In this document: positions 2,515-27,931 of the stretch, in pieces
Numbering within the stretch: the stretch's first letter is position 1
Layout: each line of letters starts with the position of its first letter
NCBI GenBank assembly: GCA_014905635.1
Contig: JABVCE010000021.1
Coordinates: 372,001 to 436,000, forward strand
Origin: Scenedesmus sp. PABB004
Taxonomy: Eukaryota
Direction of reading: 5' to 3'
Length of the DNA: 64,000 nt
Translations under genes and position numbers: made by a program
The notes under the pieces: model-generated
Database searches by the model: none
Told to the model about the DNA's origin: nothing
Seen by the model: only the letters and a program-made list of their open reading frames with translations

Positions 2515-4888
2515 ATGCGATGCGTGCAGCAGGCAGGGGCGGGCCGCGCGGCGCGGCAGCGCTGCGCGGCGGCGCCGCAGCACGCGGCGCTGCGGCGGCC
2601 CGCCGCGCGCCAGCTGGCGCGGCCAGCGGCGGCGCTGGAGAGTGCCGGGCGTTGCAGAGCAGACGTCAGTGCAGGCAGCAGGGCGGGCGTCGCCCGTGGT
2701 AGCAGCAGCAGGTGCAGCGACAGCAGGAGCAGCAGCAGCAGCGGCAGCAGCGGCTGCGGCAGCAGCGCGGCGCAGCGGCGCCGGCTGCGAGCGCCGCCGT
2801 GCGGCGCCTGGGGCCGGCCGGGCGGCGGCAGCGGCGCGCCGCCGGGCGACCCCTGGGCGTCGCCGCCGGGCGCGGCGGGGGCCGGCGGCGCGGCCGCGCC
2901 GCCGGCCGGCACGGAGCAGCCCGGCGGCGGCGCGCCGGGCGCGCTGGACAGCTACGACCCCTGGGACGACGCGCGGTCGCCCGACGGCCCGCGGGCGGCG
3001 CGCCGGCGTACGAGGCGACCGACTGGGGCTGGGACGGCGCCGGGCAGGACTGGGACCCCGCCGCGGGGCTCGCGCCGGAGCAGCTGGCCGACCTGGAGCG
3101 CGACTACCAGGAGCAGCTCGATCGCCGCAGGCGCGCCGGGGCGGGGCGGCCGGGAGAATTCAGCGCGCGCGACGCAGGGAGGGGGGGAGCGCCTCCAGGG
3201 GGAGGGCGGGAGGGCGGGGGGCAGGCGGCGCGCGGCGCGCGGCGCCGCAGCCGGCGCCGCTGCCAACGCCGCTGCCGCTGCCGCGCAGGGGGCTGGAGAA
3301 CCCGCCGCGCGACAAGTGGATCACGCCGCTGCTGGACTGGCAGTCCATCTACGGCGCGTTTGACCCCGACCAGTCGCGCACGGAGGACACGATGGCCGAC
3401 GAGGCGCTCACAAACAAGGAGGAGAGCCGGTGGGTGTGGGTGGGTGGGGGAGGGGGGGGAGGGGGAGGGGTCGCGCAGGAGGGACGCGCGCGGCGCGGCG
3501 GCCGGGCGGCGCGCCGCGGCGCCGACGCTCACGGCCGGCCGCCGCCGCCGCCGCCGCTGCGGCGCCGCAGCGAGGCGCTCGCGTTTGCGGGGCGGCTGGT
3601 CGTAATCCCCCTCATCACCGGCGCGCTCATCAGCCGCGCCATCACCGACCCCGTGCTCTCCTTCAGCCTGCAGGCGCGCCCGCCGCGCCACGGGCCCGCC
3701 CGCGCCGCCGGCGCCGCCGCGCAGCGGGGCCCTGCTAAACCCCGCCTGCGTCCCCCCCCCCCCCCCACACCCCCACCCCCACCCACCCACCCATTCGCAG
3801 AACAACCCCGACGCGTTCAGCATGACGACGCGGCAGAAGATTGAGGGCGCGTCCGCGGTGCACCTGGAGGAGACGCGCGTGAAGATGATGGTCGCCATCG
3901 GCCAGGCGCCGCCGCTCGACGACGCGGGCATGCTCGCGCACCTGCACGAGTACGCGCGCGAGGTGAGCGAGAAGGACGCCCCCCGGCGCGGCGCGCGGCG
4001 CGGGAGAGCGGCGCGCCTCGCGCGCCCCGCCCGGCCACGCACCATCGCAGCGCATGACGTGCGGGCACTCCCCCGCCCTTTCCCCCCCCATGCCGCGGCG
4101 CCTGGCCGTCTGCCACACACACGCACACACACACGCACGCGCGCACGCACGCAGGTGCAGGAGGAGGAGCGGAGCAAGAACGAGGCCAACCTCATGACGC
4201 TCGTGAGCGACAGCATCAGCGCGATGGCCTTCTTCGCGCTCTTCGTCCGCGACACGCCCGGCCGCACCGCGCTCTTCTGCACCATCGGCCGCCTCTTCGA
4301 GGGGCTCAGCGACATCGCCAAGGCGCGGGCGCAGCGGCGCGGGCGCAGCAGCGGCGGCGCCCGCCGCGCACCGTCACGCTCGCTGCACACGCTCGCGCAC
4401 TCACGCTGAACGCACGCGCACGCACTGAACATGCACGCGCACGCGCTGAACACGCACGCGCAGGCGGTGATGATCATCCTCGTCGCCGACACGCTGCTGG
4501 GCTACCACTCGGAGGAGGGTGCGTGGGGCACGCCGCCGCGCCCGCCCGCGCACCGCGCAGCGCCCGCGCCGCCACCACGCTCCGTCCGCCGCGCGCTCCA
4601 CCGCATTTTCCCACCACGCACACACACAGCACGCTCAATCACGTGCAGACACACAATCTCAACGCAAGCGCTCTCACGCGCGCCGCCGCCGCCGCCGCAG
4701 GCTGGACGGGGTTCCTGGACCTGCTGCTGGGCCACTACGGCATCGAGGTGGAGGAGGAGAACATCGTTCTCTTCGTGGGCATCATTCCCATCGCGATAGA
4801 CGTGCTTTTCAAGTATTGGATATTCATCGGGCTCAACCGCATCTCGCCCGGCGCCGTCGTGACGATCAAGCAGCTCGACCGCCACTGA
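2515..4888 (+). CDS. Nuclear-encoded CemA/Ycf10-family plastid envelope membrane protein; multi-exon, apparent 1-nt frameshift near 2988
   Basis: Arg/Ser/Ala-rich transit-peptide-like N-terminus. C-terminal exons give LFEGLSDIAK|AVMIILVADTLLGYHSEEG|WTGFLDLLLGHYGI..FVGIIPIAIDVLFKYWIFIGLNRISPGAV, matching the CemA signature (D.F.G.HS..GW...D..FKYWIF..LNR.SP). Confidence 0.85.
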
Positions 4889-4934
4889 TCGCGTGTTTTT
4901 GGGCTGGCGAGCCGCCGAGAGTGCCTACTCCACG

Positions 4935-4989
4935 GCGCCAGGCGGGGCCGCGCTCTGAGGCGAGCGCGCGAGGTCGGCTGTCCCGCCCA

Positions 4990-5028
<39 letters not shown>

Positions 5029-5650
5029 GGTTCACCTCACTGCGTGGCCTGCTGAGCTGCACGCCGTGTGAGTTTCTGTGCTGATCGCTGTGCGGTGCGC
5101 GAGGCAGCCCAGAAACTCACAACCGGCGCAACTCCCGCCAGCGAGCGGCGGCCACACCCCCATCGCGCCCCTGCTGTCCCGGGACACTCCCCGCGTCTCC
5201 CGGCCGCGACGAGCCGGCGTTTGCGGCCGCAGTCGCGCGCGAGGGTCGGGAGCATCGCGACCGCGACCGACACCAGCTCGCGACGCCGCCCCGCCCCGGC
5301 ATGCAATGACAAGCCTCCAGCGCTGCCGGTCAGGAGCTCCCCGCCGCAGCGCAGTGCCGACGCTCCGCTGGCCGGCGGCGGCGGTGAAGCAGCGGCGACG
5401 CGCGCCGCTCCGCGCCGCGCTGCCGTCGGCCGCCGAGCGGCCGCCCAGCCGCTCCGGTCGCTCCACTGGTCGCTCCACCGGTCCACGCATGACGCAGTGC
5501 GGCGACGCGCGCGAGCCGCTGCTGCACCGGGAGCAGCAGCGCACGGAGCGCTCGTCGCCGCCGCCGCCGCCGGAGCCGCCAGCACCGCGGCCGCCGCGGG
5601 CCGACTGGGGCAGCCTGCGGCTGCACAAGGGCGCCAAGGTCTTCCCCGCC
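4935..5650 (+). pseudogene. Diverged, truncated duplicate of the upstream region and exon 1 of the DiT gene (counterpart ~9350-10182)
   Basis: 5306-5650 encodes MTSLQRCRSGAPRRSAVPTLRWP...DAREPLL...ADWGSLRLHKGAKVFPA, nearly the same as 9839-10182. Similarity stops abruptly after KVFPA. Confidence 0.85.
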
Positions 5651-5679
5651 GCGGTGGCCGGCGGCGGCGGTGAAGCAGC

Positions 5680-5897
5680 GGCAGGGCGGGGCGGGCCGGG
5701 CGCGGGGCGCGCGTCGCGCGTCGCGACGCGCGCGAGGTTCGGCTGCTGGCGGCGGCGGCGCCGCCGCCTGGTTCGCCTGGTTCGCCTCACTGCGTGTGGG
5801 CTGAGCCGGTTGAGTTGTTGTGCGCCGCACAGTCCAGTTGGTAATAATCGGCGCCAGGCGGGGCCGCGCCAGCCGTCGCGGGCGCCCGCTGGCAGCG
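5680..5897 (+). repeat. Left copy of a ~210 bp near-identical direct repeat (right copy 9296-9504)
   Basis: ggcagggcggggcgggccggg...gagccggttgagttgttgtgcgccgcacagtccagttggtaataatcgg...ctggcagcg occurs at both sites; the left copy has an extra 9-bp tggttcgcc. Confidence 0.95.
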
Positions 5898-5973
5898 TCG
5901 CTCGGCCGCGACGAGCCGGCGGTTGCGGTCGTGACGATCAAGCAGCTCGACCGCCACTGAGTCATGCCTGACG

Positions 5974-6077
5974 GAAAATTAATTAAATTTTCGGTTCGGT
6001 AGACGGCAGTTGCGCGGTTCGGTAGACGGCAGTTTCGCTGCGCTCGCGCAGCCGCGGTACCGCCGACCGGTCGGCGG
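5974..6077. repeat. AT-rich imperfect palindrome, 20-bp direct repeat pair and 18-bp perfect palindrome
   Basis: gaaaattaattaaattttc (5974-5992); cggttcggtagacggcagtt at 5992-6011 and 6015-6034; ccgccgaccggtcggcgg (6060-6077). Confidence 0.9.
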
Positions 6078-6813
6078 CGACAGCTGCGCGTCGAGGCGCT
6101 CACGCCAGCCCTGCTCGCGCTGGGCGTGCTGCTGCTCAGTTTGCCATGCGGTTAGCAGCAGAGTGCACCGCTCCAGTCCGGGGGCGCGGCGCGGCGGCGG
6201 GCGCGGCGCGCAGACTGGTTTCGCGGCGGCCGCGCACAGCGCGGCGGCGCGCGCACGCTGGCGCGCGGCGGTCAGGCCGCGCGCGCTTTGCGCGCAGAAC
6301 GGTGGCGCGCCGGCCGCCCGCGGCGCGGCGCCGCAGGTTCTGTCGTCCTGTCACAAGGCAGCTGCCCGAGCGCCGTTGCGGCCGCCGGAGGCGCGAGGGG
6401 CCGCCGCACCGCCCACTCGCCCTCGCTCACGTCACGCGCACACCACGGCGCCCGTGCCCGCCCCTCCCAGGGCCGGCGCGCGCGCAGCAGAGGGCGCGCC
6501 GCCGCGAGCGCCGGCGCTCGCCGCCGCCACGCCCGCCTTCCGCGCCGCCCCGCCGGCCACACGCGGCTGATCACGGTGCGCAGAGGCGCCTGGCGCGGCG
6601 CGGTGGGCGGGCGGCGCGGGGCTGCGCGGCGGCGGGCGGTCATCGGCGCTGTCTGCCGCAGCGCGCCGCCGCCCCGGGCCGCCGCGCCGCGCCGCCCACT
6701 TCCCCCTGACGCACTCCCCGCTCCCGATACGCCCACAGGCCCGCCGCGCCCGCCCCTCCCAGGCGCTCCCGCGCGGCGGGGCCTTCAACTCCTGCGCACG
6801 CGCCGCGACCACC

Positions 6814-9094
6814 ATGGCGTCGCGCAGCTCCATCAGCAGCGACAGCGCCAGCAGCGCCGCTGCCAGCAGCAGCGACGACGACGGCGGCGGCGCCTACTAC
6901 GTGTCGCCCGCCAAGCTGCGCGCCACGAGCGCGGTGCGGGGGTTGGGCCCGCGGCGGCGTGCAGGCTGGCAGCGCGCCTGCCGCCGCCAGTCGGCCCAGC
7001 CCCTGACCACACACCCTTCACACCCCTTCCTCTGATGCGCGCGCGCAGGGCGACGGCGGCCCGCGCGCGCGCGCGGCCGGCGGAGGCGCCGGCACCAGCA
7101 GCGCCGCCGGGCCCAGCGGCGACAGCAGCGCCCAGCCGCGCAAGCGCAGCACGCCGGCCTACCTGCGCGACGAGCAGGAGCCCATCCCGCCTGCGGCCCC
7201 GCGCGGCGCGCGCGGCGCCGCGCGCGTGGCGGCCAAGCTCGCCGCGCAGGCGGAGCGCGCGGCGGCGGGCCTGGCGGCGTTCTTCTCCGAGCGCTGGGCG
7301 TACCGCACCGACGTGAGCAGCGATTGCGCGCGCCGCGCGCGGGCGCGCTGCCGTGGCAGCAGGCCCTGCCAGCACGTGCACCCCACGCCCTCCCGCGCGC
7401 GCGCGCGCGCGCGCCCAGAACGGCGAGGTCGCGCTGGTGTACGGCGGGCCGGGGCTTCCCGAGGACGTGCGCGCCAAGGCGCGCGCGCTCATCACGGCGC
7501 TGGGCTACAAGCGCGGGCGCGGCGGCTGGAAGGTGAGGCGCGCGCGCACGCAGGGGCCCTGCGCCGCGGCGATGCGCAGCCCAAAGGCGACGCGCTCCTC
7601 CAGCAGCCTCACCCTCATACACACGTCTGCGCCAACAGGCCGGCAAGGGGCACTTCCACCGCAACACAGACCAGCTGCTGAGGACGCTCGAGGGCCGCCA
7701 GCTGCTGCACCTCGTCAAGCCCATCATCGACGACCTCAAGGCGCAGACCGGCTACATCGGCGCCGACGCTGAGCTGGTGGTGCAAGCGGGCAACCAACAG
7801 CCCGACCACCGCGACACGTTCACCGGCGCCGACTGGTTTGAGCGGGTGAGGCTGCGGCGGCGGCCCGGCGGCGGCGGTGCAGCGCTCCAGCTAGCGTTGC
7901 GCCCACCTCCTGCTCCAACGCCGACTTGCCGCCAACGCGCGCGCGCAGGCTGGCGTCGAGCTGCCGGCGCAGGGCGCGGCCGGCGCGCCCGCGCTGGCGG
8001 CGGCGGCAGGCGCGGCGGGCGCGCCCGCGCTGGCGGCGGCGGCAGGCGCGGCGGGCGCGCCCGCGCTGGCGGCGGCGGCAGGCGCGTCGGGCGCGCCCAT
8101 GCTGGCAGCGGCGGCAGGCGCGGCGGGCGCGGCCGCGCTGGGCGGCGAGGGCGAGCTGCCCAGCTCCTACAAGCTCGAGCGCGTGCCTGGTGGCTTCCGC
8201 ATTCTGCTGGACCTGGAGCCCACCGGGAAGCGCTCCGTGATCTACAAGATCCTGCGCGGCCGCAACCTCCACCAGGTGTGGCGCACGCGCGCGCAGCAAC
8301 GCCGCCTCAGGGGCTTATGCGGGCGCTGCGCAGCCCCCCACCCCCTCTCACTCAAAAGAAAACGGCGCTCCCGCTGGCGCAGGTCAAGAAGATGCGGTGG
8401 GGCATGATCGCGATGAACGCCGCTGCCGCCGGCTCGGGCGGCTGGCGCCACGGCCGCCCCATGCACCACGGCCGCTACGGCGACGGCGGCACGGTGCGCT
8501 GCGCTGCGCTGCGCGCCAGCCGCTGCGCACAGCCGCCGCCGCGCACGCCGCGCGCGCCCACCCCAGGCACCACCTCGCCCATCCGCGCAGATGAGCATCG
8601 ACGTGGCGCTGCCGGTTCTGGCGGGGCCGGAGAAGCAGGGCGGCGTGCCCGGCGCGTCGCTGCAGACCAAGGCCTGGTCCGTCTTCAACCACGGCGGCCA
8701 CGGCGCCTCGCTCAACGACGCGCCGGCCGTGGGCGGGCGGCGCCGCGGCGCGGGCAAGCCGCCGGCTGCAGAGGGCGCGGCTGCACGCGCCGCGGCCGCC
8801 GCCGCCGCGGCCGCCGCCGCCGCCGCCGCGGCGGCCGCCGCCGCGGCGCAGGCCGAGCTGGCCAGCGACGAGGAGGACCACGAGGAGGAGGAGCCGGAGC
8901 AGCACTGCTGGTACTGCGGCACCACCCGCACGCCGCGCTTCCGGCGCGTCGGCCGCCACTGGTGGTGCAACGCCTGCGCCGTCCAGCAGCGCAAGGCCCC
9001 GGCGGCCTTCGACGTCGCGAGCCGCCCCTGGAAGGGGTGCGGCGACGACGGCTGCGCGGGCTGCCTGCACCCGGCGGCGGTGGCGGACAGCTAG
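6814..9094 (+). CDS. Putative 2OG-Fe(II)/AlkB-like dioxygenase domain fused to a C-terminal GATA-like zinc finger (about 7 exons)
   Basis: GT-AG introns at ~6934-7048, 7313-7418, 7533-7638, 7846-7948, 8276-8382 and 8494-8590 join one frame: ..AELVVQAGNQQPDHRD..FRILLDLEPTGKRSVIYK..WGMIAMN..MHHGRYGDGGTMSIDVAL..CWYCGTTRTPRFRRVGRHWWCNAC. The Zn finger is clear; the dioxygenase call rests only on motif order. Confidence 0.6.
7973..8140 (+). repeat. 36-bp coding tandem repeat ([12 protein letters not shown], about 4.5 copies)
   Basis: Unit ggcgcggcgggcgcgcccgcgctggcggcggcggca repeated in frame inside an exon. Confidence 0.9.
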
Positions 9095-9105
9095 GTACCT
9101 AGCTG
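9088..9105. repeat. 18-bp perfect palindrome overlapping the TAG stop codon
   Basis: cagctaggtacctagctg; the stop is at 9092-9094. Confidence 0.95.
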
Positions 9106-9108
9106 CCC

Positions 9109-9228
9109 GCCGCCCGCCGCGCTGCCTGGCCGCCGCCTGTCTGCGCCCGTGCTACCGGTAGCACGGGCGCCCGTGCTACCGGTAGCACGGGCGCAGACAG
9201 GCGGCGGCCAGGCAGCGCGGCGGGCGGC
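9109..9228. repeat. Perfect 120-bp palindrome containing two nested 24-bp palindromes, followed by 20-bp tandem repeats to ~9260
   Basis: Arm 9109-9144, gcccgtgctaccggtagcacgggc twice (9145-9168, 9169-9192), then the reverse-complement arm 9193-9228. Followed by repeats of ggcggccaggcagcgcggcg. Confidence 0.97.
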
Positions 9229-9295
9229 CAGGCAGCGCGGCGGGCGGCCAGGCAGCGTGGGCGGGCGAGAGCGGGCGCCAGGGCAGTGGAGGAGT

Positions 9296-9504
9296 GGCAG
9301 GGCGGGGCGGGCCGGGCGCGGGGCGCGCGTCGCGCGTCGCGACGCGCGCGAGGTTCGGCTGCTGGCGGCGGCGGCGCCGCCGCCTGGTTCGCCTCACTGC
9401 GTGTGGGCTGAGCCGGTTGAGTTGTTGTGCGCCGCACAGTCCAGTTGGTAATAATCGGCGCCAGGCGGGGCCGCGCCAGCCGTCGCGGGCGCCCGCTGGC
9501 AGCG
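9296..9504 (+). repeat. Right copy of the ~210 bp direct repeat (left copy 5680-5897)
   Basis: Base-by-base match to 5680-5897 apart from one 9-bp indel. Confidence 0.95.
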
Positions 9505-9838
9505 GCCAGGGGGAGCTGCACGGTGCTTGCCGGGCGGTCTGCCGCGTCGCAGTAGGTGCAGAGGTCGGCCGGGTTCCCGTGGGATGTGCTGATCGCTGTG
9601 CGCTGCGCGAGGCTGTGCGGGGCACCTGCTGACAGAACCCAGCAGCGGCGGAACGTAACCGCAGCGAGCGGCGGCCGCACGCCAGTCGCAGTCTCCCGCC
9701 TGCCCCGGGACGCTGCCTGCGTCGCTCGGCCGCGACGAGCCGGCGGTTGCGGCCGCAGTCGCGCGCGAGGGTTGCGTCGGGAGCGGGCGGCCCTCGCGAC
9801 GCCAGCCCTCTCGCGACGCCGCCCCGCCCCGGCATGCA

Positions 9839-11782
9839 ATGACAAGCCTCCAGCGCTGCCGGTCAGGAGCTCCCCGCCGCAGCGCAGCGCCGACGCTCCG
9901 CTGGCCGGCGGCGGCGGCGCAGCAGCGGCGCAGCCGGCGCGCGCCGCTCCGCGCCGCGCTGCCGTCGGCCGCCGAGCGGCCGCCCAGCCGCTCCGGTCGG
10001 TCGACCAGTCCGTCAGGCATGACTCAGTCCGGCGACGCGCGCGAGCCGCTGCTGCCGGTGCTGCAGCGGGAGCAGCAGCGCGCGGAGCGCTCGTCGCCGC
10101 CGCCGGAGCCGCCGGAGCCGCGGCCGCCGCCGGCGGACTGGGGCAGCCTGCGGCTGCACAAGGGCGCCAAGGTCTTCCCCGCCACGGCCGCGGTGGGGCT
10201 GGGGCTGTTCCTGCGCTTCGCCGTGCCCACGCCGGACGGCGTCACCGAGCAGGTGCGCGGCCTGCCCCCGCTCACTGGGGGCCTCGCCCGCCCCGGCGCT
10301 CGCCGGCGCGCGCGCTGACCGCCGCCCGCCGACCCCCGCCGCCGCGCAGGGCTGGTCGCTGCTGGCGCTCTTCGCGACGATGGTGTCGGGCCTCGTGTTT
10401 GCGCCGCTGCCGACGGGCGCGTGGGCGCTGCTCGGCGCGGCGGTCGGCGTCGCGGGGCACGTGCTGACGTTTGAGGAGATGTTTGCCGCCAGCAACTCGT
10501 GCATCGTGTGGATGGTCGTCGCGTCCTTCTTCCTCGCAAAGGCGCGTGCGTGTGTGCTGCGTGCACAGCTGCGGCCGGCGCGCGGCGGGCGGCGCCGGCA
10601 GCGCGGCAGCGGCCGGCGGGCGGGGCGGCAGCGCGCGGGTGGCCCCCTTCGCCGCAGCGCGCTGCCCGAGCCCGCCGCCGCCGCCGCGGGCGCCGGCGCG
10701 CAGGGGTTTGAGAAGACCGGCCTCGGCGCACGCATCGCCAACACGCTGCTCACGCGCGTCGGCGGCGGCACGCTCGGCCTCGCGGTCGGCCTCGCGGGCG
10801 CGGAGGCGCTGCTGAGCCCGGTCATGCCGTCGACGACGTCCCGCGCGGCGGGCATCTTCATGCCCGTCATCTCAAGCGTCTCCGCCGCGGCCGGCAGCCT
10901 CCCGGGTGCGCGCCGCTGGACCCGCAGGGCTGCCGCGCGGCGCTGCTAGCTGCAGGCGCGGCGCGGGGCGGCGGCGCTGCGCGTGCCGGCGCGCCGACGC
11001 GGCCGCCGCCGCCGGCGCCCCGCCGTGCAGGGCAGCCAAGCCGGAAGCGCCTCGGCGCGTACCTGACTCAGAGCCAGTTCCAGTCTTCGGTCCACTCCTC
11101 CAACTTTGTGATGACGGCGGCGGCGCAGAACCTGCTGTGCCTGCAGCTCGCGGGCGCCGTCGGCGTCGCGCTGCCCGACCCGTTCGCGCTCTGGCTGACC
11201 GGCTCCTGCGTGCCCGCGGCGCTGGGTGCGCGGCGCCGGCGCGCCCGTAGCACGCGCAGCGCGCGCGGCGGCGCCCCCCTGCCCGCTCACGTCGCTCGCC
11301 CGGGGCCACCCGCCCGCGCGCGGTGGCGCGGGGCCGCCGCAGGCGTCGTGCTGACGCCGTGGCTGCTGTTCAAGCTGTGGCCGCCCGAGGTCACGTCCAC
11401 GCCTGACGCACCCGCGGCGGCGGCGGCGCGGCTGGCTGAGATGGGGCCGCTCTCGGTCGACGAGGCCATCATGGCCGCCACGATGCTCGGCGCGGTCGGC
11501 CTCTGGGTGCGCGCCACGCGAGCGCGCCGCCGCCGCCGCGCGGGGCAGGCCACGCGCGCGCGCACGTACGCACCTGTTGCGGCGGCCCGCCGCCGGGGCC
11601 GACGCGACGCGCGGCGTGCTCCGCGGCGCCGCGCAGGTGTGCGGCGGCTCGCTGGGCATCGAGCCTGTCACGACCGCCCTGCTCGCGCTGGGCGTGCTGC
11701 TGCTCACGGGCGTGCTGTCCTGGAAGGACTGCCTCTCAGAGAACCCGCCCTGGGTGGGCGCGCCGCCGCCGCCCGCGCGCAC

Positions 11783-11817
<35 letters not shown>

Positions 11818-12455
11818 GCCCCTCGCTCACCCCGCCTCGCCGCCCGCCCGCCCCGCCTCCCCGCCGTCATCGCCATCGCCACATCGCCGCTCGCAGGACA
11901 CGCTCGTCTGGTTCACCATATTAATCAGCATGTCGCTGGGCCTGCAGTCGGGGGGCGTGATCGGCGCGTTTTCGGGCTGGGCGGGCGGGCACCTCGCGGC
12001 CCTGAGCCTTCCCTGGCCGGCGCTCTTTGCGGGCCTTCACGCCGTGTTCTTCGTGGTGCACTACGCCTTTGCCTCGCAGACCGCCCACGTCGGCGCGCTG
12101 TACGCGCCCTTCCTGGCGCTCATGCTCGGCGCGGGTGCGCGGTGCTGCGCGCGGGGGCCGCCTGCTGGCGGGCGGGCGCTGCCGCGGCGCCGTCCCGACC
12201 GCCGCCGCGCCGCGCGCGCGCGCGCGCGTGCGCGCAGGCGTGCCGCCGCAGCTCGCGGCGATGAGCCTCGCCTACAACGTCGGTCTCTTTGGAAGCCTCA
12301 CCCACTACGCGAGCGGGCAGGCCGCGGTCTACACCGGCGCGGGCTTCCTGAGCACGCGCGACGTGTTTGTGCAGGGCGCCGCCGCGGCGGCCGCCAACCT
12401 GCTGCTCTGGGGCGGCGTCGGCATGGCCTGGTGGAAGGTGCTCGGCTGGTGGTGA
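9839..12455 (+). CDS. DASS-family dicarboxylate transporter (2-oxoglutarate/malate translocator, DiT-like); multi-exon
   Basis: GWSLLALFATMVSGLVFAPLPTGAWA, WMVVASFFLAK|GFEKTGLGARIA, LSPVMPSTTSRAAGIFMP, TAAAQNLLC, HYAFASQTAHVGALY, LTHYASGQA, WGGVGMAWWKVLGWW-stop. Confidence 0.93.
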
Positions 12456-14306: not shown

Positions 14307-16722
14307 GCGAGCTGCGGCTGCCGCGGCGGGAGCGCCCCGCCGCGTCGGCCTCTGCCTCTGCCTCGGCCGCCTCCTCCGCGTCGGGCGGCGCCGCCCACGC
14401 GCCGGCGCCGCCGCCGTCGTCGCCCTCCGCGCCATGCTGCAGCCAGCGCTGCTGCGCCAGGAACTCAGCGATGAACGAACGCTCGGCGGCGGGCACGCCG
14501 CCGCCGCCGGGCTCGGGCGTGCCGCGGCCGGCAGTGCCACTGCCGGCGGGCGCGGCCGCGGGCGGCGTTGCCGCACGGCCGGCCGGCGGCGGCGACGGCG
14601 GCGGCGCGGGCACGGGGCTGAGCAGCGCGCGGTCGCCGCCGCCGCCGCCGCCGGCAGGCGCGAGCGCGGGCGGCGGCGGCGGTGGCGGCGGGCTGCCGCC
14701 AGCGGGCGTGCCGGCGACCGTGCCCCTGCTGAGCAGCCTGCCGGCGCGACGGGGCGGGGCGCGTGAGCCCTGCGGCGCGGCAGCGCGCGCCGAGCGCAGC
14801 GGCAGCGCCTGGCCCGCGGTGCGGCCGCGCCGGGCGCGCGCGCGGGCGCACCGTTGCTTGCGCTGCACCTCCTGCAGCTCCTTTGCGAGTCGGCCCACCT
14901 CGCTGCCCTCCAGGGCCCGCTCCGCCAGCCACGACGCGGCATAGCCCATGCTGGAGGCGGCACGGCGGGGCAGCGGCGGTGGCGAGTCGGCGTGGCGTGC
15001 GCGGCGGCAGGCCAGCGGGCCGGCGCGGCCGCCAGGCTGCCGGCCGCGCGCGGGCGCGGCGGCGCCGGCCCGGCCCGCACCTGAACAGCACGGCCGCCTG
15101 GTAGCGTGTGAGGAGGCCAAAGAGGCTGCCCACGAAGAGCAGGAGGAGCAGCAGCAGGCCGAGCGCCGCGTCCGCGAGCCAGCAAAGCACGTTCACGAGC
15201 CGCCGCGCGGGCTGCCAGCGCGGCAGGAACGCGAGCAGCAGCCGGCCGACCAGGCGGGCGAGCTCAAACTCAACGTAAAACAGGCGCACCACGAGCGGGC
15301 CCAGCCAGCGCTGCGCGGCGCGCGGCGGGCGCGGCGGCGTTGAGGCGGCGCGGCGGCGCGCGCGCGCGGCCGGGGCAAGGGCGGCGCGGCGCGGCAAAGG
15401 GCGCCGCGGCGCGCGGGGCGCGCCTGGTCCTTGTGGTGGCGGCGGCCCTGGATGGCGAGAAAGACGACCAGCACCACCAGGCCCGCGCCGCCGGCGAGCT
15501 TGGCGCCAAACTTGATGAGCCGCGACATCACCGCGTGCCCCCGCACCGCCTCGAGCCGCGTCGCCTGCGCCCAGAACGCCCACAGCAGCAGCGCCGCCGC
15601 GTTGAGCATGCAGACCAGGAGCACAGACTTCCTGCGAATGGAGAGGCGGTGCGGTGGCGGCGCCGCGCCGCGCGCGTGCGTGGGGCGGCGGCCGCCGCCG
15701 CGGTGCCCGCCGGGCCGAGCGGCGCAGCGCCGCAGCACGCAGCATGCAGCAGCGCGCAGCGCGCTCAGCACGCTCAGCGCCGCACCACCAGGTGTCCAGC
15801 ATTCCCTCCACGGCGTAGCAGAGGATGACGGCCGAGGGGAGCAGGTAGAGCGCGCCGCTCAGCGCGCCCAGCGCGCGCCCGAGCTGCACGCCCGCGTCGT
15901 CGGCGGCCTGCGCGAGCTGCGCCTCGTTCCACTGCCGCCAGAGCAGGCGCCCCGCGCCGGCGGGCTGGTGGCCGCGCAGCCACGCGACAAACTCGCGCCC
16001 CGCCTCCTGCGCGCCGCCGCCGCGGCGCCGTGCGCACGTCAGGGCACGCCGCGGGGGGCTGCGCGCGGCGCTGCGGCCGCGCGGAGCAGCGCCGCGGCCC
16101 GCGGCCGCGCGGCGCGCCTTGTTGCGGTCCCACGAGAAGCCAAAGGGGTTGAACCACGCCGGCGCCATGAGCAGCCCCAGCACCACGAGCACGTAGCTCC
16201 AGACCGCCGCAAAGCCCATCGGCAGGCCCAGCGCGCCCGCGACGACCAGCAGCAGCAGCAGGTGCGCTGCGGCGGCCGCGGCGCGCGCGTGGGCGCGCGT
16301 GGGCGCGCGAGGCGGACGCCGGGCGGCGCGCGGTGGCCGTTGCCCGCCCGCGCCCTGGGCCAGCGCCGCGCGCGTGCCGCGTGCGCCGCCGCGCACCGCC
16401 AAACCACATGTGCGAGCGGGCGTACGCCTGGAAGAGGTCGACGAACGGCGTCGCCGCGAGCTTGTAGCCGCGCCCGGTCGCGCTGTACTTTGCGCCGCCG
16501 TACGCGACGTCCGACGCAAACGCGTGCGCCGTGGTCTGGCCGCGGAAGACGTAGAACAGCAGCGAGCCAGACACGAGCTGGCGCAGCACGTTTTTGAGCG
16601 TTGCGAGCAGGCCGTCCTCCTGGTAGGTGTGCGCGGCGGCGGTCGGGGTTTTGCAACGCAACGCGGTCGGGGTTTTGCAACGCAACGCGGCGGCGGGGCT
16701 ACGGTGCCGCGGGCGCCAGGGC

Positions 16723-16753
<31 letters not shown>

Positions 16754-19700
16754 GGCCGCCTCACCAGCCAGACGGTCGCCACGTACGTGAGCAGCGAGAG
16801 CGAGCCGAGCTGCAGCAGCTGCAGGCCGCCGACGAGGGTGAGCAGGTCGTCCACCACGGCGGCGCTCCCGCCGGCCGGCGCGGCCGCGCGGCGGCTGCTC
16901 GCAAAGAGCGCCAGCAGCAGCACCAGCCACGCGTTGACCAGCAGGCTGTACATCAGCAGTGCTGGGCGGCGAGCGGGCGCGCGGGCGCGCGCGGGCGGTG
17001 AGTGCAGGCGGTGAGAGCGGCGTGGCGCGGCGCGCGCGGCGCGGGGCGTGTGGCGGCCGCGGCGGCGGCGCGTGGCGGCACCGCTGCGCACTGGTGTTGA
17101 TGAAAAAACCGTTGCCTGCAGGGCCCGGCGCGAGGCGACACAGCGCGGCGTTGTTGGCGGCCAGGCCGCGGGCAGGCGGGCGGGCGGTCGGCGTGTGTGC
17201 GCGGTGGGGCGCGCGCGGGGCGCGCGGGCCCGCGGCCGCCGCGGCCCGGCCGGCGGCGCGGCACACCGGTGTGGTACCAGGTGAGGAGGCGCGGCATGCT
17301 GAAGCGCCGCGCGAGGCGCTGCACGTCGCGGCTGATGACCTGCTCGCCGTTGCCGCCCGCGATCTGCAAGGGGTTGCGCGGCCGGGGCGGCGGCGGCCGC
17401 GCGTGGCGCCGCGGAACGGGCGGCGGCGCGCACGGCGCGCGGCGCGGCCCTGGCCGCGCCGCGGCGCAGCGGGCGGACTCGCGCGGGCGCGCCTTGGCCT
17501 CAAAGGTGTTGATCGACTCGAAGCCCATGTCGCGGCCCTTGCCGACGGCGATGTAGTCGACGTACGCCACGCCGCGCCCGCGCAGCATCAGGCCGTACCC
17601 ACCAAACACGTCCTCGCTCACGTGCAGGCCCTTGGTCGCCTGCGGCGGCGGCGGCGCCGCCGGCGGCGGCACGTCGGCAGGCCGGCGGCTGCGGACGCCC
17701 ACGCCTCGACAGAGCCTTGGACTGCGTGTGGCGCAGCGCAGCGCCGCCGCCCGGGCCGCACCTTGCTCACGCCGCCGCTGGTCATCACGAAGAGCTTGTC
17801 CCACACGTCCGGGTGGCCGTAGTGGAAGCGGCAGCCGCCTGCGCAGCACGGCGGCGGGAGCGTGGGCGGAGCAGCGCAGCCCGCTGCCTGCGCAGCGGCC
17901 GCGGCCGGCCGCCTCGCGCAGCAGCCGCCCGGCGGGCGCGCGCCGCACCGGGGTTGTGCATCAGGCGCTGCACCGTCGTGCCGAAGCTGCGCTCCGTGGC
18001 GGCCGCAAACTCGGCGAGCGCGCCGCTGTCCTCGCTGAACACCCACTCCCTGAACCCCACCAGCGCGGGGCCGAGCCGCGCGCCCCGCCCGGCGCCGCCG
18101 CCACAGCGCCAGCGCCGCGGCGGCGCGTCGCGCGGCGCGCTGCGCACGCCCGCGGCGGCGCCGCCGGGGCCATCGAACTCTGCCAGCAGGTTGGGCAGCT
18201 TGAGCGCCTCGGCCAGGTAGGAGTCCTGGTTGCAGTCGATCGTCTGCAGCGCCTCGCCGTGGCAAAAGGGCAGCGCGTGGTTCTGGTTCTCTGGCTTGCC
18301 CTCGCCCAGGATGACGCCGCCGTTGGTCTCGAGGTTCATCGGCAGCCGGATCCTGCAGGCCGGGCCGGGGGCGGGGTCGGCGCTGCGCGGGCCGGGCGAG
18401 AGAGACCGCGCGCGGCGCAGGCGGCCCCCCTGCGCTCCCCCACACGCGCGCGCCCGCCGCGCAGCGCCCGCCGCGCTGTGCGCGGCGCGCACCGGTACTG
18501 CTCGGCCACGCCGCCGGCAGACTCGCTCCAGCGCAGCAGCACGCTGTACTGGCGCAGCAGCTGCGGCCCCGCGCCGGCCTTGGTGCGGAGGCGCGGCCCC
18601 GCGTTCACCGCGCCGCCGCCCGCCTGCGTGGCGCGCGCGCGCCGCCGTCCGCGTTGCCACCCATGCCGCGCCCGCGCCGCGCCCGCGCCGCGCCGCCGCC
18701 GCCCAGGTTGCTGCCCCGCCGGCCGCGCACCTGCACAGCCACCGCGCCCGGCGGCGGGGCGCTGAGGTTTTCGGTGTCTATGTAGGCCAGCGCCAGCGCA
18801 GCAGCGTAGCGCCGCGCGAGCACGGCGCGCACGCAGTGGCTCAGCCAGCGGCGCGGCACGCCGCCGTCATTCTGAAACTCGCCCAGCGCCTGACTGTGCG
18901 AGCGGGCGCGGGCGGGCGCGGCGGGCGCGCGCGGTGCGGGGCGCGGGGCGCGGGCGTGAGCGCGGCGGGCTGCGCGGCTGCCCGCTGCGGGCACGCGCGC
19001 CGCGGCGTGTCAGCCCAGCCGGCAGCGCCCCGCCGCCCGCCCGCCGCCCGTCGCGCCTCGACACGACGTAGCTGAACTTCTGCCTTGCCAGCAGCTGCGC
19101 CGCGCGCTGCACCACCGCCTCCAGCCACGCGCTGCGCTCGCGCGCGTCCACCGCCACGCTGTCGCCGCCGCCGCCGGCCGCCCCCGCAAGCGCGGCCGCC
19201 GCCGCTGTGAGCTCGGCCTTGCGCTGCATCAGCACCAGCTGCTGCAGCGCCTGGCGGGGCGCGGGCGGCGCGCGCGTTGGCGTGGGGGCGCGCGGCGCGG
19301 GCGCACGCGCCGGGCGCCGCGCGCGTGCACGAGCGGCACGTGGTGGCGGCGCCGCCGCCGCCTGGGTTTAAGGGTTTAGGCCGCTGCCGCCGCCTGGGTT
19401 TAAGGTTTTAGGCCGCTGCCGCCGCGCGCACCGAGTGATAGTGCATGATGCCATGGACGGTCCGCTCCAGCAGCTGCCCGCGCATGGACGCCCACACGAG
19501 CAGCTCCTCGCGCCAGCCGTGCAGCACGCCGCCTGCGGGCGGGCGGCCGCGGCGCCGCGCCGCGCGCCGGCGGCCCGGCGTCAGCGCGGCGCGGCCGCCG
19601 CAACGGCGGCGGCGCGGCCCGCCCCCGCTGCGCGCGCGTCGCGCGCCGCCGCGCGCCGCACCGGGCGCAAAGTGCTCGGGCGTGACGTCGCCGGGCTTGG

Positions 19701-22700
19701 CGGGGCAGGCGGGCCCCAGCGTCGCGCGCACGTCTGGCCGCGTGATGACGCGCTGCGCAAAGTTCTTCCACTCGGCCACGTACGTCGCCTGGAGATACTT
19801 GAGCGTCTGCGCGGCAGCGGCCGCGGGTGCGTGGGCGTGTGCGCGCGCCGCAGGCGGGCGGCTGCTGGCCCGGGCGCGGCGCCGCCGCGCGCCGGCGGCC
19901 GGCGGGTCCGGCGCGGCGCGCGCGCCTCGGTGCGCTCGCCGGCGGGCGTGAAGAGGGAGCAGGGGTCGCCCGGGCGCAGGCGCGGGGCGCCCATGTCGGC
20001 GAGCGCGGTGGGCTCGTCCAGGGCGTACAGCACGTCCTCCCCGTAGTGCGGCGTCAGCGTCGTCATGCTGGCGGCGTTATAACGCGCGCAGCGCGCTTAT
20101 GTGAGCCGGCGCTTGAAACGCGCAGCGGGGACGCCGGCGCGGCGCGCGCGCGCGCGTGTGCTTGCAAGCGCCGGCACGGCGGCGCGCCGCACCTGCGCAT
20201 GAGCGCGACCGGCGGCGCGGTCGGCAGCAGCGGGTTGTGCAGGGAGGAGGCGAAGAAGCACAGCACGCGCGCCGCCTCGGGGCTGGCCGGCGCCGCGGCG
20301 CCGCGCGTGAGCGCGAGCATGTCCAGCAGCCAGGCGGCCACCTGCTGCGGCAGCGCCGCCGAGGCGCGCCACGCGTCGGGCCGCGCGCCGCGCGCGCCGC
20401 CGCGCCCGCAGCCGCCTCGCCGAGCGCCTTGGCCGCGCCGCCGCCGGCCACGGCCGCCACGGACTTGAAGGCCTGCTCCAGCAGAAGCTGGCTGTCAATG
20501 TCAGACAGGTCAATGGCCTGCAGCGGTGCAGTGCAGTGCGGCACGGCGGCAGCGCGTCAGCGCGGCTGCGGGGGCGGCGGCGCCGGCGCGGCGGCGCGCG
20601 CGGCGGCGGCGGCGGGTGCGGCGCGGCGCGGCGCGCACCGGCGCGGGGCCGGCGTCGTCGCCGCCCGCGGCGGCGGCGAGCTTGGCGTGCAGGCGCTGCA
20701 GCAGGTCGCGGCAGTCGACGAGCGCGGCCGCGGCGGCCTCCACGGTGCGGCTGCTGGCCACGCGCGGCGGCGCGCCGCCGCACTCGGCCGCCAGCCGCCG
20801 CGCCTCGTCGGTGGGGACGAGCATCAGCTGCGCCAGCTCGTCCTCCTGGAGCAGCCCGAGCGAGGCGAGCAGCCAGGCGAGCAGGTTGAACGCGCGGCAG
20901 ACCGCCTCCTCCTGCGTGAGGCTGCTGATGCCGGCGGCCGCGACCTCGACCGCCGCGCCGGCGACGACAAACCTGCGCGCGGGCCGCAGCACGCGTCCGT
21001 GCCGCGTGAGCCCGGCGCCGCGTGGGCCCGGCGCCGCGCGGCGCGGCGGCGGCGGCGCGGCGGCGCGCGCGCCGTGCCTGGGCGGCAGCAGCCAGGCGCC
21101 CTGCGCCGGCGCGGCGCCGTGGGCGAGCGTCTCGTAGCGCAGCCGGGCCGCCTCGTCGTGGCTCAGGTGGTCGCGCGCGCGCAGGTCGCCCACGACGCTG
21201 TCCCACGCTGCAGCAAAGAGCACCTCTGACGGCGGGCAGCGCGGCACGCAGTCCAGGAGCGGCGGCGCCGCGGCGCGCGCCCCGCCGCCGGCGCCGGCGC
21301 CGGCGCCGCCGACGCTGCTGGCGCGCCGCGACACGGCCGCCGCGGCGGCCGCCTCGGCGGGCACGTGCGCGCTGGCGGGCAGCAGGCGCTGCGCGAGCTT
21401 GCGGCTGAGCCCGGGGAACGCCCAGACCAGGTCGCCGACGCCCCTGCGCGTGCCGGGCGGGGCGGCGTGAGCGGCCCACCTCCGGTTCCCCCCGCCGGCA
21501 CGCGGCGCGGCGCCCCCCGCGCCCGCAGCTGCCGCGCCGCGCGCACTTGACGTGGCCCACGCGGCGGTGCAGGCCGAGCACGGCGGTGCTGTAGAGGGCA
21601 CCCACGAGCTGGAAGATGAGGCCGGTGTCATAAAAGACCAGGAACGCGGCGGCGACCCACATGCTCCACACCAGCAGCACCGCGTCGACCCACGCCCACC
21701 CGCTCGCGGGCGGCAGGCCAGAGTCGAGCGGTGGCGAGAGGCGCGAGAGCAGCGCGCGCGCGGGGCCCTGGCGGCGGGCAGCGGCGGCGGCGGGTTGTGG
21801 CGGCGAGCGCGGGCGAGGCGGGGAGGCGCGCGCCCTCTCTCGTTCTCCATCTGTCTCTGTCTGCCTCGCGCATGCGCGCGCGCGCATGCTGCCCTGCCAG
21901 CCCAGCACACGCACCTGTGCGAGCGGGCGCAGCACGACGAGGAAGTCAAAGAGAAACTTCAGGCACAGCACGACGCCCCACAGCCCGCACGCGGCGGCGT
22001 AGCGGGGCAGGTCGTGGCTGCCCGACAGCGCAGAGTACGGGAAAAAGTGCTCCGCGGAGCGCCTGCGGCGGCGGGCAGGCGGGCGGGCGTGGGGGGTGTG
22101 AGGCACTCGTGCGCCGACGGCGCGGCAGGCGGGCGCTGCCCCGCCCGCCGGCCTGTTGGCCCGCTGGGGCGCCGGCGCGCCGCCCCGGCGCCGGCGAGGC
22201 AGGCGCGCTCACCGAGCCTCCTTGTGGCTGAGGAAGCCCAGCCAGCCCTGCGCGCGCGGCGGGAGCGCCTCCGCGCAGCGCTTGGCGAGCTGGTGCAGCG
22301 CCCACGCCGCGCCGTACGCGGCCGACGCGAGCGCCCAGAGCGGGACGCGGCCGCCGCCCGGCAGCGCCGGCGTGCGGCCGCCGAGCGCGCGGTGCAGCGG
22401 CCAGCTGGGCAGGTGGCTGTCGAGCAGCACCCACACGCAGCCAAACCAGAAGAGCAGCGTGACGCAGTTGTGTGCCGCGAGCGCCGCGCCGCCGTGCACG
22501 GGCGGCGACACGCGCACAAGCGAGCCCTCGCGCTGCCGCCGCGTCTCCCACTGGCGCGCCCACCACGCCGCGGCGCGCGACGCGGGCCCGCGCGCCGCCT
22601 TGGCCGGCGCGCCGCCGCCGGCGAGGTCGCCGCCCGTCTCGGGCGCGGGCGCCTGCACCCGCACCGCGCTCGGCGGCGTGACGAGGTGCAGAATGGTCAG

Positions 22701-25328: not shown

Positions 25329-25384
25329 CGCGGCGGCTGCCCGCTGAGCGGTGTGAGGGCTAGCGCGGCATCGCCGAGTCGCTC

Positions 25385-26050
25385 CCAGGCCGCGCGAGCG
25401 CGCCTAGCAGCCTCCTGGCGGCCGCGGAGCTGGGCGCAGCCAGCGGCGCCGCTGGCCTGAAGCACGGAGCACGGCGGCGCCGCGGAGCTCGCGCTGTGCT
25501 CGTGAGGTGTGTCTGACTGCCTGCGCGGGCTGAACCAGGCGAGCAGCTGCGGGCGCGGTTCTGCGCGCCGCATGCGCCGCAGCTGCCTCGCCGCCGTGGG
25601 CCCAGCTGCGCGCTCGCTGGTCCGGACACCCCAGCTCGAGGCGGCGCGCGCGCGGGCACTGGCTCGCAGGACCGACAGCCGGAGCGATGCCCCCGCCCTC
25701 CTAGCCCCGCCGCGCCGCGCCGGCAGCAGCGGCGGCGCTGCGTGCCCGGGCGGAGCGCCGGCGGGTGGCGCCCTGAGGCGGCGCCATGCTGTATCCACTG
25801 AGCGCCGTCCGGGCCACGCAGGCGGTGGGTGCGGTGGCAGCGAGGGGCCGCCGCGGGCCGGCCGCGCGCTGATCGAACGCCCCAGCAGCGCGTTCGACAG
25901 CTGCCCGCCCGCGCTTGACCGCCGGCGCCGCCGCTGGCTCCCAGGGCGTCTACGCGCTGGCCGAGGCGTTCGGCTTTCAGCAGTTCAACTTCTCGCCCGC
26001 CACGCAGGAGTGGGTCGCCGCCAGCGCGGGCCTGGCCGCCAACCAGCTCA
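25385..26050 (+). pseudogene. Truncated duplicate (~665 bp) of the upstream region and first exons of callose synthase 2 (counterpart 30832-31490)
   Basis: Near-identical DNA to 30832-31490 including an intron. Encodes GVYALAEAFGFQQFNFSPATQEWVAASAGLAANQL, then similarity ends. Confidence 0.92.
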
Positions 26051-26186
26051 GCGCGGCTTTCACGACGCCACACCGCCACAGCTCACGTTCGTTTGTTCGA
26101 GTGCTTTATAATACATCCGCCCGGTTCCACGCACAGCACCAGCGTTTCGTTTCCCACCAGAAGCGGGAGCTCCCATGCACGCCCGC

Positions 26187-26886
26187 TCACACCACGCTGG
26201 CCGCCGCCGCGCGCACGACGGGCGCGCTGCCGGGGGCGGCCCCGTGCGCGCTGAAGCTCTTGATCGACGTCAGCTCGGCCTTGGACATGTTGCTGCGGCG
26301 CGCCGCGCGGCAGAGCGGCGGTGAGCGCGGGCGGCGGGCGGCAGGCGGCAAGCGGCGGGCGGCGCACGCCGGCGGCCCCGCCCGCGCGACGCACTCGAGC
26401 TTGGTGCCGGTGCGCAGGCAGTCGATGGGGTGCACCGGCGCTGCCTCGTTCGGGTGCTTCGCCGGCCCGTACCTGCGCGCCGGGGTTGGCTCGCTCAGAC
26501 GGGGGGGGGGGGGTGCGTGCGCTGCACGGCCGCGGCGGCGCGGGCAGCGGCGGCACGGGGCGGGGCCGGCTCGGCCGCGCAGGGGCCGCGTCGCGCCTCT
26601 CGGGGAACAGCCTCCGCCGCTTGAGGTAACACAGCATGGCCAGGGAGCCGATGAAGATGCCGCCGAGCACGCACGCGATGATGATGCCCGCGACGGCGCC
26701 CTTGCTCAGCCCCGAGCCCGGGTAGATCGTTGGCCCCGGCAGCGCTGCAGCGTTGCCAGCGTTGTAGTTAAATTGTCCGAAGCCCAGGTCTTGAGAGAGG
26801 GACCCGCCCGCCTGCGCCGCGGCCGTGGCGGCGAGCGCGGACAGCACCAGCGCTGCCGTCGACGCGGCTCCCCCCGCGCCAGGCAT
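26187..26886 (-). CDS. Small single-pass type I membrane protein of unknown function; about 3 exons
   Basis: Signal-peptide-like AALVLSALAATAAAQ, short ectodomain, GLSKGAVAGIIIACVLGGIFIGSLAMLCYL TM helix plus KRRR stop-transfer, spliced tail ending VRAAAASVV-stop. Confidence 0.7.

Positions 26887-27890: not shown

Positions 27891-27931
<41 letters not shown>

Follow-up and report, generated by a model that had tools for sequence, protein, structure and literature searches.

Templated patches and abutting palindromes at the borders of a one-gene segment between a CemA-family gene and a DiT-like gene

A single gene lying in a segment between near-identical direct repeats, with palindromic structures at both ends, raises the question of whether the segment is a mobile or inserted cassette, as an earlier note on this DNA had proposed, or whether its borders arose in another way. 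The segment was analysed within a window of 64 kb, the whole stretch of DNA under study, and all positions refer to that window. CemA and DiT, the neighbours named in the earlier note, were confirmed by Pfam matches: PF03040 matched the CemA-family exons (E 5.6e-19 and 2.9e-10) and PF00939 (Na_sulph_symp/DiT-like) the DiT-like gene (E 9.3e-20 to 1.7e-27).

3305–4888, + strand: last six exons of a CemA-family gene (PF03040), with the stop codon at 4886–4888
4964–5660, + strand: copy A, a truncated DiT-like upstream region, 5' UTR and approximately the first 55 codons (alignment to copy B)
9340–12455, + strand: copy B (upstream region, exon 1), running into the intact DiT-like transporter gene (PF00939, alignment)

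The DiT upstream region and exon 1 thus flank the segment, as had been noted. Positions 5124–5654 aligned with 9646–10187 at 84.7% over 557 columns, and short matches stretched copy A to 4964–5105. A CemA-like last exon was also encoded at six metagenome loci (69–82% amino acid identity). The only one of the six with 10 kb of downstream sequence (L002) contained neither a DiT-like gene nor any other shared gene there. The divergence of these relatives puts an empty-site comparison out of reach, and they speak neither for nor against CemA directly followed by DiT, the ancestral state put forward in the earlier note.

The direct repeats reported at 5680–5897 and 9296–9504 were present. In a pairwise comparison, 209 of 209 bases were identical, and the only difference was a 9-nt tandem duplication (CTGGTTCGC) carried by the left copy, giving repeats of 218 and 209 nt, respectively. 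The left repeat was one of five exact patches that followed one another without gaps, each matching a template elsewhere in the window.

5655–5975, no strand assigned: templated chain of five gapless exact patches (exact matches within the window)
5655–5682: patch 1, direct copy of 5369–5396
5680–5897: patch 2, the left repeat, equal to 9296–9504 plus the 9-nt slip; the longest patch (218 nt)
5895–5928: patch 3, direct copy of 9719–9752
5928–5960: patch 4, equal to 4856–4888, the CemA end including its stop codon
5956–5975: patch 5, reverse complement of 10009–10028, the only inverted patch of the five
9296–9504, + strand: the right repeat, read as the template of patch 2; its own flanks are unique sequence

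Exact 18-mers from elsewhere in the window covered 321 of the 321 nt of the chain, compared with a mean of 3.6 nt (maximum 54 nt) in 200 dinucleotide shuffles and 0–49 of 321 nt in twelve control windows. Consecutive patches overlapped by 3, 3, 1 and 5 nt. Against approximately 1 nt that we estimate for chance, these overlaps support microhomology at the switches, although not decisively. The templates were located 0.3–4 kb away with the segment in place; with the segment taken out, all five were within approximately 0.85 kb of two chromosomal ends. A self-comparison of the window placed no template of any patch inside the one-gene segment, and templates were drawn from both diverged DiT copies. 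Because the two repeats differ by no substitution, compared with 84.7% for the DiT copies, the patches would postdate the DiT duplication; the DiT 5' copies probably stem from this older duplication. Judged from these alignments, the left repeat appears to be one link of a local copy chain and not the terminus of an element.

Further structures were found between the chain and the gene.

5975–5991, no strand assigned: A/T-only run AAAATTAATTAAATTTT, without a template in the window
5992–6034, no strand assigned: two exact 20-nt direct repeats (5992–6011 and 6015–6034) with a 3-nt spacer
6060–6077, no strand assigned: perfect 18-nt palindrome CCGCCGACCGGTCGGCGG
6108–6138, + strand: 31-nt stretch identical to 11676–11706 within an internal exon of the DiT-like gene

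The direct repeats and the 18-nt palindrome agreed with the earlier description of the left end. The AT palindrome described for the same end was present as the only A/T-only run of at least 10 nt in the 64 kb, and it was imperfect as a palindrome. The 31-nt copy was nested in a looser 67-nt match (85%). Restriction-site-like palindromes (TTAATTAA, GGTACC and ACCGGT) were considered as signs of an engineered cassette and judged uninformative; the window contained 5 GGTACC and 12 ACCGGT sites, both under the 17 expected from composition.

At the right end, both of the nested palindromes that had been described were recovered, together with a tandem repeat.

9082–9111, no strand assigned: 30-nt palindrome with one mismatch and a perfect 18-nt core (9088–9105)
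9109–9228, no strand assigned: perfect 120-nt palindrome with 60-nt arms and no spacer
9203–9267, no strand assigned: 20-nt tandem repeat of 3.2 copies, containing the right palindrome arm

The shorter palindrome was centred 2 nt past the stop codon of the enclosed gene, its core spanned that codon, and it abutted the longer palindrome with a 3-nt overlap (9109–9111). The centre of the longer one was a doubled 24-nt palindrome. Its 60-nt arms compared with 15-nt arms for the runner-up perfect-arm palindrome in the 64 kb. The embedding of its right arm in the 20-nt tandem repeat suggests that the right arm is the original one. The predicted RNA fold of 9075–9275 had an energy of −188 kcal/mol (z −13.4). 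A search of 4500–10500 against Rfam returned no family, and the hairpin gave only miRNA-precursor-like matches below threshold (33.4 bits, with the gathering score at 66.7).

The single gene reported for the segment corresponded to one predicted model.

6814–9094, + strand: predicted seven-exon gene of 548 aa (GT-AG model), with exons at 6814–6933, 7049–7312, 7419–7532, 7639–7845, 7949–8275, 8383–8493 and 8591–9094
8900–8989, + strand: GATA-like zinc finger, CX2C-X16-CX2C (sequence and fold searches)

All of its introns were GT-AG, in phase 0 and 97–115 nt long. The period-3 signal coincided with the exons, and no period-3 signal was detected in the flanks. GC3 was 0.92–0.98 in each of the seven exons, like that of the CemA and DiT exons. 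Exon 4 had no homologue among the longer proteins of a word-indexed collection and none at E ≤ 0.001 among 1.84 billion representatives; none was found for exon 7, either whole or as residues 97–167, and neither exon matched the viral contigs. The ESM Atlas, queried with selected exons, gave weak leads only (best 0.85 and 0.84), one cluster of which (0.82) was GATA-bearing and from Chlorophyta. The gene appears host-adapted, with a composition like that of host genes and no relatives detected by the single-exon queries.

The earlier note had called the product a DNA-modifying 2OG-Fe dioxygenase with a GATA finger. For the finger, a phmmer search of solved-structure sequences gave GATA-2 (E 0.0016), and the best 13 Foldseek matches listed for the finger model were all GATA-type fingers. 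The top match (4hc7_A) had a probability of 0.97, an rmsd of 1.3 Å over 33 columns and E 0.16, for a weak model with a mean pLDDT of 65.8. Pfam GATA (PF00320) reached only 12 bits (E 0.17), below the gathering cut-off of 26.8. The protein shares with GATA zinc-finger factors the four cysteines and TP-(F/W)-RR in the loop. The loop of the usual GATA finger comprises 17–18 residues, whereas that found here has 16, and the remainder of the 548-aa protein has no detectable relative. A GATA-like finger is thus weakly supported, on sequence and model comparisons. The dioxygenase assignment gained no family, solved-structure or homologue support from single-exon queries, although the candidate domain would span exons 3–7. 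No dioxygenase match was obtained when Pfam was scanned with each exon singly, admitting E values up to 10, when selected exons were compared with PHROGs, solved-structure sequences and the ESM Atlas, or when exon 4 was searched against the 1.84 billion representatives. The protein contains an HRD motif and later histidines, which do not in themselves point to the double-stranded beta-helix fold and HxD...H triad of 2OG-Fe(II) enzymes. Without dioxygenase support, the analogy to transposons carrying TET/JBP genes is baseless for this locus.

Gene-capturing transposons include Pack-MULEs and Helitrons, and TET/JBP genes are carried by KDZ transposons. Gene-capturing transposons are defined by their ends, target duplications, multicopy status and association with a transposase. 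The likeness of this locus to them is a host-type gene between repeats; it differs from them in lacking such ends, a target duplication and a transposase within the 64-kb window, where one copy lies. It differs from KDZ transposons in that single-exon queries of the 548-aa gene gave no sign of a 2OG-Fe(II) domain, whether TET/JBP or other. The best local alignment between 5961–6200 and 9061–9300 scored 22 in direct and 26 in inverted orientation, compared with 22 ± 3 (maximum 34) for shuffles, and no inverted terminal repeats or shared termini were found in these two intervals. No short target-site duplication abutted the segment; the flanking repeats were those of 209 and 218 nt only, and the left one was parted from the segment by two more patches. 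Neither the gene nor its ends had another copy in the window, and neither the 28-nt unit of the palindrome nor the 20-nt repeat at the left had an exact match in the viral contigs (0 matches each). The earlier observation that no transposase, integrase or Rep was visible was upheld by the period-3 analysis, which gave no coding signal for a second region of this kind, or for a reverse transcriptase, in the segment. LTR retrotransposons have LTRs with TG..CA ends on either side of gag/pol, and these features were absent; the internal region is one intron-bearing gene of cellular type with no other coding signal, and the repeats start with GCAG and end with GCG. Helitrons have 5'-TC and CTRR-3' ends with a 3' hairpin and insert between A and T. 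Such ends were not seen by inspection, as CGGTTC follows the AT run, and CTAG at 9091–9094 falls in the region of the stop codon, with G as the next base.

The locus has been rearranged, as the earlier note held, and its two junction-like boundaries indicate that the one-gene segment was possibly inserted; the proposal that it is mobile was not sustained. Five exact patches with their templates and overlaps occupy the left boundary, and two abutting palindromes the right. We lean towards the explanation that the segment, approximately 5976–9096 (or 6139–9096), was recently a free-ended fragment that was joined by template-copying, error-prone end joining. On the left, the chromosomal end at approximately 5654 would have primed repeatedly at microhomologies of 1–5 nt and copied five nearby stretches from either side of the break, one of them reversed, and the extended end would finally have been sealed to the gene fragment. 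On the right, the end of the fragment, 2 nt beyond the stop codon, may have folded back and copied itself to give the 30-nt palindrome, while the chromosomal end at 9169 may have done the same to give the 120-nt palindrome, the two fold-back products meeting at the 3-nt overlap. This order of events, and an enzyme activity of polymerase-theta or MMBIR type, are what we infer from the junctions. For the fragment, an origin at another place in the genome and excision with rejoining in place are about equally probable. A randomly captured fragment would not be expected to hold just one gene, apparently whole, and to stop 2 nt past its stop codon, as this segment does; the segment is also placed exactly between the two older DiT 5' copies. 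Both observations speak against this explanation.

Comparison with described repair systems was consistent with such joining. The locus had the features by which filler junctions are recognised, namely full coverage by exact copies, microhomology at each switch and templates in both orientations. At polymerase-theta-mediated end-joining junctions of T-DNA and CRISPR breaks in Arabidopsis, the filler is described as assembled from multiple short stretches identical to sequence close by; these map to the break end on the opposite side, and microhomology averages 2.4 bp (PMC10923293). The chain found here likewise consists of exact nearby copies with overlaps of a few nucleotides at the joins. 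This locus differs in its natural origin within a nuclear genome that is alga-like, in the insertion of a host-like gene instead of T-DNA, and in the length of the 218-nt patch and of the 321-nt chain (up to 484 nt if extended to 6138). Since this patch, and templates up to 4 kb away, exceed the usual polymerase-theta fillers, MMBIR fits better. Synthesis-dependent microhomology-mediated end joining (SD-MMEJ) in Drosophila, in the account of PMC2943611, produces inverted repeats by snap-back synthesis and direct repeats by loop-out; the palindromes of 30 and 120 nt at this locus resemble the former, and its 20-nt direct repeats the latter. Published inserts comprise a few to tens of bases, whereas a 60-nt arm with nested palindromes would imply far longer or repeated copying. 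MMBIR/FoSTeS is a replicative form of template switching, and its switches at microhomologies are described as a source both of templated insertions and of complex rearrangements (PMC8421209). Templates in the kilobase range and copies of 218 nt and approximately 700 nt make this a better fit than pure end joining; the locus differs in having no large copy-number change and no sign of replication involvement.

Alternatively, the gene may be a long-term resident that was never free, with the chain and the palindromes produced independently of each other, by local template switching or slippage where the intergenic DNA is fragile, perhaps provoked by the palindromes themselves. Host-like GC3 and introns are in line with a resident gene, and the fragility of palindromic sites is described in PMC7999016 and PMC3855049. 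A further indication comes from a second gene block at 26051–30851 (a small membrane-protein gene and PHO4), which precedes a glucan-synthase paralogue and is flanked by 646-nt copies of the 5' end of the downstream gene. Despite this equal flanking architecture, no patch chain was found at the block, so that duplication and fillers may be unrelated and the zinc-finger gene long resident. We nevertheless regard a resident gene as unlikely, as it would require two recent exact events right at both borders of one gene, the right-hand templates all skip the adjoining 3.3 kb of gene sequence, and the two palindromes abut like a pair of processed ends.

An artefact of assembly or library preparation could have arisen through in-vitro template-switch chimeras, for example during whole-genome amplification, or through mis-polishing in a region of 79% GC. 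Chimeras of in-vitro strand displacement likewise show microhomology and inversions, and every odd feature of the locus is 100% exact. We consider such an origin quite unlikely, given that the left repeat departs from its template by a 9-nt slip, that the features are restricted to one locus in 64 kb with 0–49 of 321 nt in the control windows, and that the enclosed gene is intact with clean splice sites. A non-autonomous element or a transposon that captures genes (Pack-MULE, Helitron or LTR-like), with the structured ends and repeats as its termini, would account for a single gene between near-identical direct repeats and palindromic ends; it is highly improbable in view of ends without direct or inverted similarity beyond shuffles, a left repeat that is one of a series of unrelated local patches and is separated from the AT run by 78 nt, and the lack of a target duplication, of coding signal for mobility functions and of further copies in the window or the viral contigs.

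If the assembly is correct, this locus would be an unusually legible case from nature of break repair that copied templates in several steps, preserved on both sides of a gene that is itself intact, in an algal-type genome with very high GC content. Direct repeats and palindromic ends can imitate a mobile element, which calls for caution in transposon annotation; the locus yields no new enzyme-carrying transposon. Together with the older PHO4 case, it hints that such repair shapes gene order and makes partial promoter and first-exon duplicates. A broader and doubtful proposal is that this genome relocates whole genes by copy-and-paste break repair into the 5' regions of other genes, where a duplication of 0.65–0.85 kb of promoter and first exon(s) keeps the target intact. 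Gene-sized fragments captured in this way would bring their own promoters. Two such architectures occurred in the 64 kb, and the zinc-finger locus would still have the fresh filler and fold-back scars of the joining. A CTAG-palindrome motif was also considered as common to this locus and an inverted duplication at 17264/38918, and was rejected: the latter consists of two paralogous glucan-synthase genes, with a 22-nt palindrome in one only.

The window had a G+C content of ~79% throughout and, since its genes carry introns that are short and bordered by GT-AG, comes from the nuclear genome of an alga-like eukaryote. The analysis was based on this 64-kb window and on public collections. The one-gene segment (~5976–9096) had the following neighbours:

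CemA-family gene, ending at 4888, left of the segment
DiT-like transporter gene (Na_sulph_symp), right of the segment

An earlier note had claimed a flanking duplication, direct repeats and structured ends at this locus, and all three were confirmed; what it observed is real and exceeds chance by far. Both sides of the segment carried the region upstream of DiT together with the beginning of its exon 1 (84.7% over 557 columns), on the left as a truncated copy (copy A) and on the right leading into the intact gene. The direct repeats, 5680–5897 and 9296–9504, were identical over all 209 common bases and differed only in that 9 nt were tandemly duplicated in the left copy. AATAA occurred twice in 64 kb (5843 and 9450), each time within one of the two repeats. 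The structured ends comprised:

5992–6011 and 6015–6034, exact 20-mer pair
6060–6077, perfect 18-nt palindrome
9088–9105, perfect 18-nt palindrome across the stop codon
9109–9228, perfect 120-nt palindrome, 60-nt arms, no spacer

The 120-nt palindrome had an RNA fold of −188 kcal/mol (z −13.4), and the arms of the other perfect-arm palindromes in the 64-kb window reached at most 15 nt. The AT run at 5975–5991 was the sole A/T-only run of at least 10 nt in 64 kb.

At the left boundary, every base of 5655–5975 lay within one of five exact copies of other sequences in the locus:

5655–5682, from 5369–5396
5680–5897 (the left direct repeat), from 9296–9504
5895–5928, from 9719–9752
5928–5960, from 4856–4888, spanning CemA's stop codon and the 30 coding bases before it
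5956–5975, inverted, from the reverse complement of 10009–10028

Consecutive patches overlapped by 3, 3, 1 and 5 nt. Of the chain's 321 nt, 321 lay in 18-mers with an exact match in other parts of the window, against a mean of 3.6 (maximum 54) in 200 dinucleotide shuffles and 0–49 in twelve control windows. Its templates were drawn from both diverged DiT 5′ copies, and the chain is therefore younger than the DiT 5′ duplication. Accordingly, the left direct repeat is a link within the patchwork and does not mark the end of an element. Right of the chain came the AT run, the pair of 20-mers, the small palindrome and one further exact copy:

6108–6138, 31 nt, identical to 11676–11706 inside an internal DiT exon

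The right boundary consisted of two palindromes. The segment's final 15 bases, ending 2 nt past the stop codon, were followed by their own reverse complement with one mismatch (9082–9111), and the last 3 nt of this palindrome (9109–9111) also belonged to the left arm of the larger, 120-nt one. Since the right arm of the 120-nt palindrome sits inside a 20-nt tandem array, it was probably there first and was copied to give the left arm. In the simplest reading, two DNA ends would each have folded back and copied themselves, then annealed at GCC; repeated fold-back rounds would fit the doubled 24-nt palindrome in the middle of the 120-nt one. The array (9197–9264) resembled 10565–10628, which lies in the non-coding gap, probably an intron, behind the second DiT-like exon (83% over 70 columns, E 4.7e-10, local search); both stretches have low complexity and a high GC content, and the likeness may be another old patch or chance.

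A seven-exon model (6814–9094) with canonical GT-AG borders gave an uninterrupted 548-aa protein; all six introns were phase 0 and each exon length was divisible by three. Codon-position composition was examined, since long ORFs arise easily at such a GC content. GC3 was 0.92–0.98 in every exon and GC2 far lower (0.38 in exon 4), resembling the CemA and DiT exons, and the period-3 signal was confined to the gene's exons, being absent at 5657–6745 and 9095–9980. On these grounds 6814–9094 is one real-looking, host-adapted gene. Exon 5 contained a 36-nt tandem repeat within the coding sequence (7965–8147, 5.1 copies, 91% identity), encoding a 12-residue Ala/Gly/Pro-rich unit roughly five times over, between the two better-conserved-looking halves of the protein.

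A second direct-repeat pair was found at 25415–26055 and 30852–31495 (96.3% over 646 columns). Both copies comprised the 5′ part of the downstream glucan-synthase paralogue (promoter, exon 1 and a portion of exon 2), and only the right copy ran on into the gene. The surroundings were:

~16400–25400 (minus) and ~31226–39532 (plus), head-to-head 1,3-beta-glucan synthase paralogues (Pfam PF02364, FKS1_dom1)
26051–30851, stretch between the repeats
~26230–26890 (minus), apparent small gene, by eye, no Pfam match
~27164–30402, PHO4-family phosphate-transporter gene

The PHO4 block occupied the spacer separating the 5′ ends of the paralogues, whose nucleotide identity was 80–87% (17264–18323 against 38918–37782). 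Neither fillers nor a patch chain occurred at its junctions. TGTAA, the green-algal polyadenylation signal, occurred once in 64 kb, at 30775, just past the PHO4 gene. One paralogue carried a perfect 22-nt palindrome, CTGCCAGCTAGCTAGCTGGCAG (38922–38943), with no counterpart in the other. This palindrome and that at 9088–9105 were both built around CTAG, which was rare in the window (14 sites against 112 expected from composition).

Published work describes fillers or templated insertions made by iterative microhomology-primed extension and release, often copying the opposing break end, with junctional microhomology of ~2.4 bp (PMC10923293), and inverted repeats from snap-back and direct repeats from loop-out synthesis (PMC2943611). 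The locus anatomy matches these signatures. MMBIR, a form of replicative template switching (PMC8421209), fits the 218-nt patch and the kilobase template distances at least as well. The locus is most aptly classed as a natural and well-preserved case of a known kind of event: templated, microhomology-primed break repair. We somewhat favour one recent event that involved the segment with both its ends free, because no patch template lay inside the segment, all five templates of the chain come to lie within ~0.85 kb of the chromosomal ends once the segment is removed in thought, and the right junction is a double fold-back. A segment from another locus and one cut out and rejoined in place are both compatible with it. 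However, the segment holds exactly one whole-looking gene, ends just past the stop codon and lies precisely between two older DiT copies, and the PHO4 locus has the same outer architecture without a patch chain. This recurrence argues that flanking duplications of the kind occur generally in the genome, untied to this gene, and would be compatible with its long residence here, which we consider unlikely. The boldest surviving reading, recurrent gene relocation by this repair route with target-preserving duplications, is similarly doubtful, and an artefact is also unlikely.

The novel mobile cassette with a nucleic-acid dioxygenase, as first proposed, found no support. The segment ends were unlike (similarity 22 direct and 26 inverted; shuffles 22 ± 3, maximum 34) and lacked a short target duplication. 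No other copy resembling the ends or the gene occurred within the 64-kb window, the end motifs matched nothing in viral contigs, and by period-3 signal there was neither a coding signal besides the gene nor a transposase-type region in its flanks (5657–6745 and 9095–9980). Six metagenome loci encoded CemA-like last exons (69–82% identity); downstream synteny was readable in one of them (L002), whose 10 kb lacked a DiT-like gene and was not otherwise syntenic with the window. Towards the ancestral order proposed in the earlier note, CemA followed directly by DiT, these relatives are neutral. No dioxygenase was matched when each exon was compared with Pfam (E up to 10), selected exons with PHROGs, and exons 4, 5 (C-terminal part), 6 and 7 with the sequences of solved structures, or in word-indexed searches, viral contigs or the ESM Atlas, and exon 4 gave 0 matches among 1.84 billion representatives; the queries were single exons rather than the spliced protein, so a domain spread across exons 3–7 could escape them. 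An HRD motif and later histidines were present and were not taken as evidence for a dioxygenase.

The gene that the presumed repair surrounds is lineage-specific and encodes a GATA-like finger. This C-terminal CX2C-X16-CX2C finger was the sole part of the protein resembling anything known. It resembled GATA-2 (E 0.0016, solved-structure sequence search) and stayed below the cut-off in Pfam GATA (12 bits, cut-off 26.8). A fold model of modest quality (mean pLDDT 65.8) was also searched, and among the matches listed the top 13 were all GATA-type fingers; the best had a probability of 0.97 and an rmsd of 1.3 Å, but E 0.16. In copy A (5077–5971), the DiT-like start codon was kept and the open frame continued across the chain of patches, ending with a stop codon at 5969–5971. 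The copy A promoter was directed at the zinc-finger gene, ~1.3 kb downstream, and its capture by, or read-through into, that gene is conceivable.
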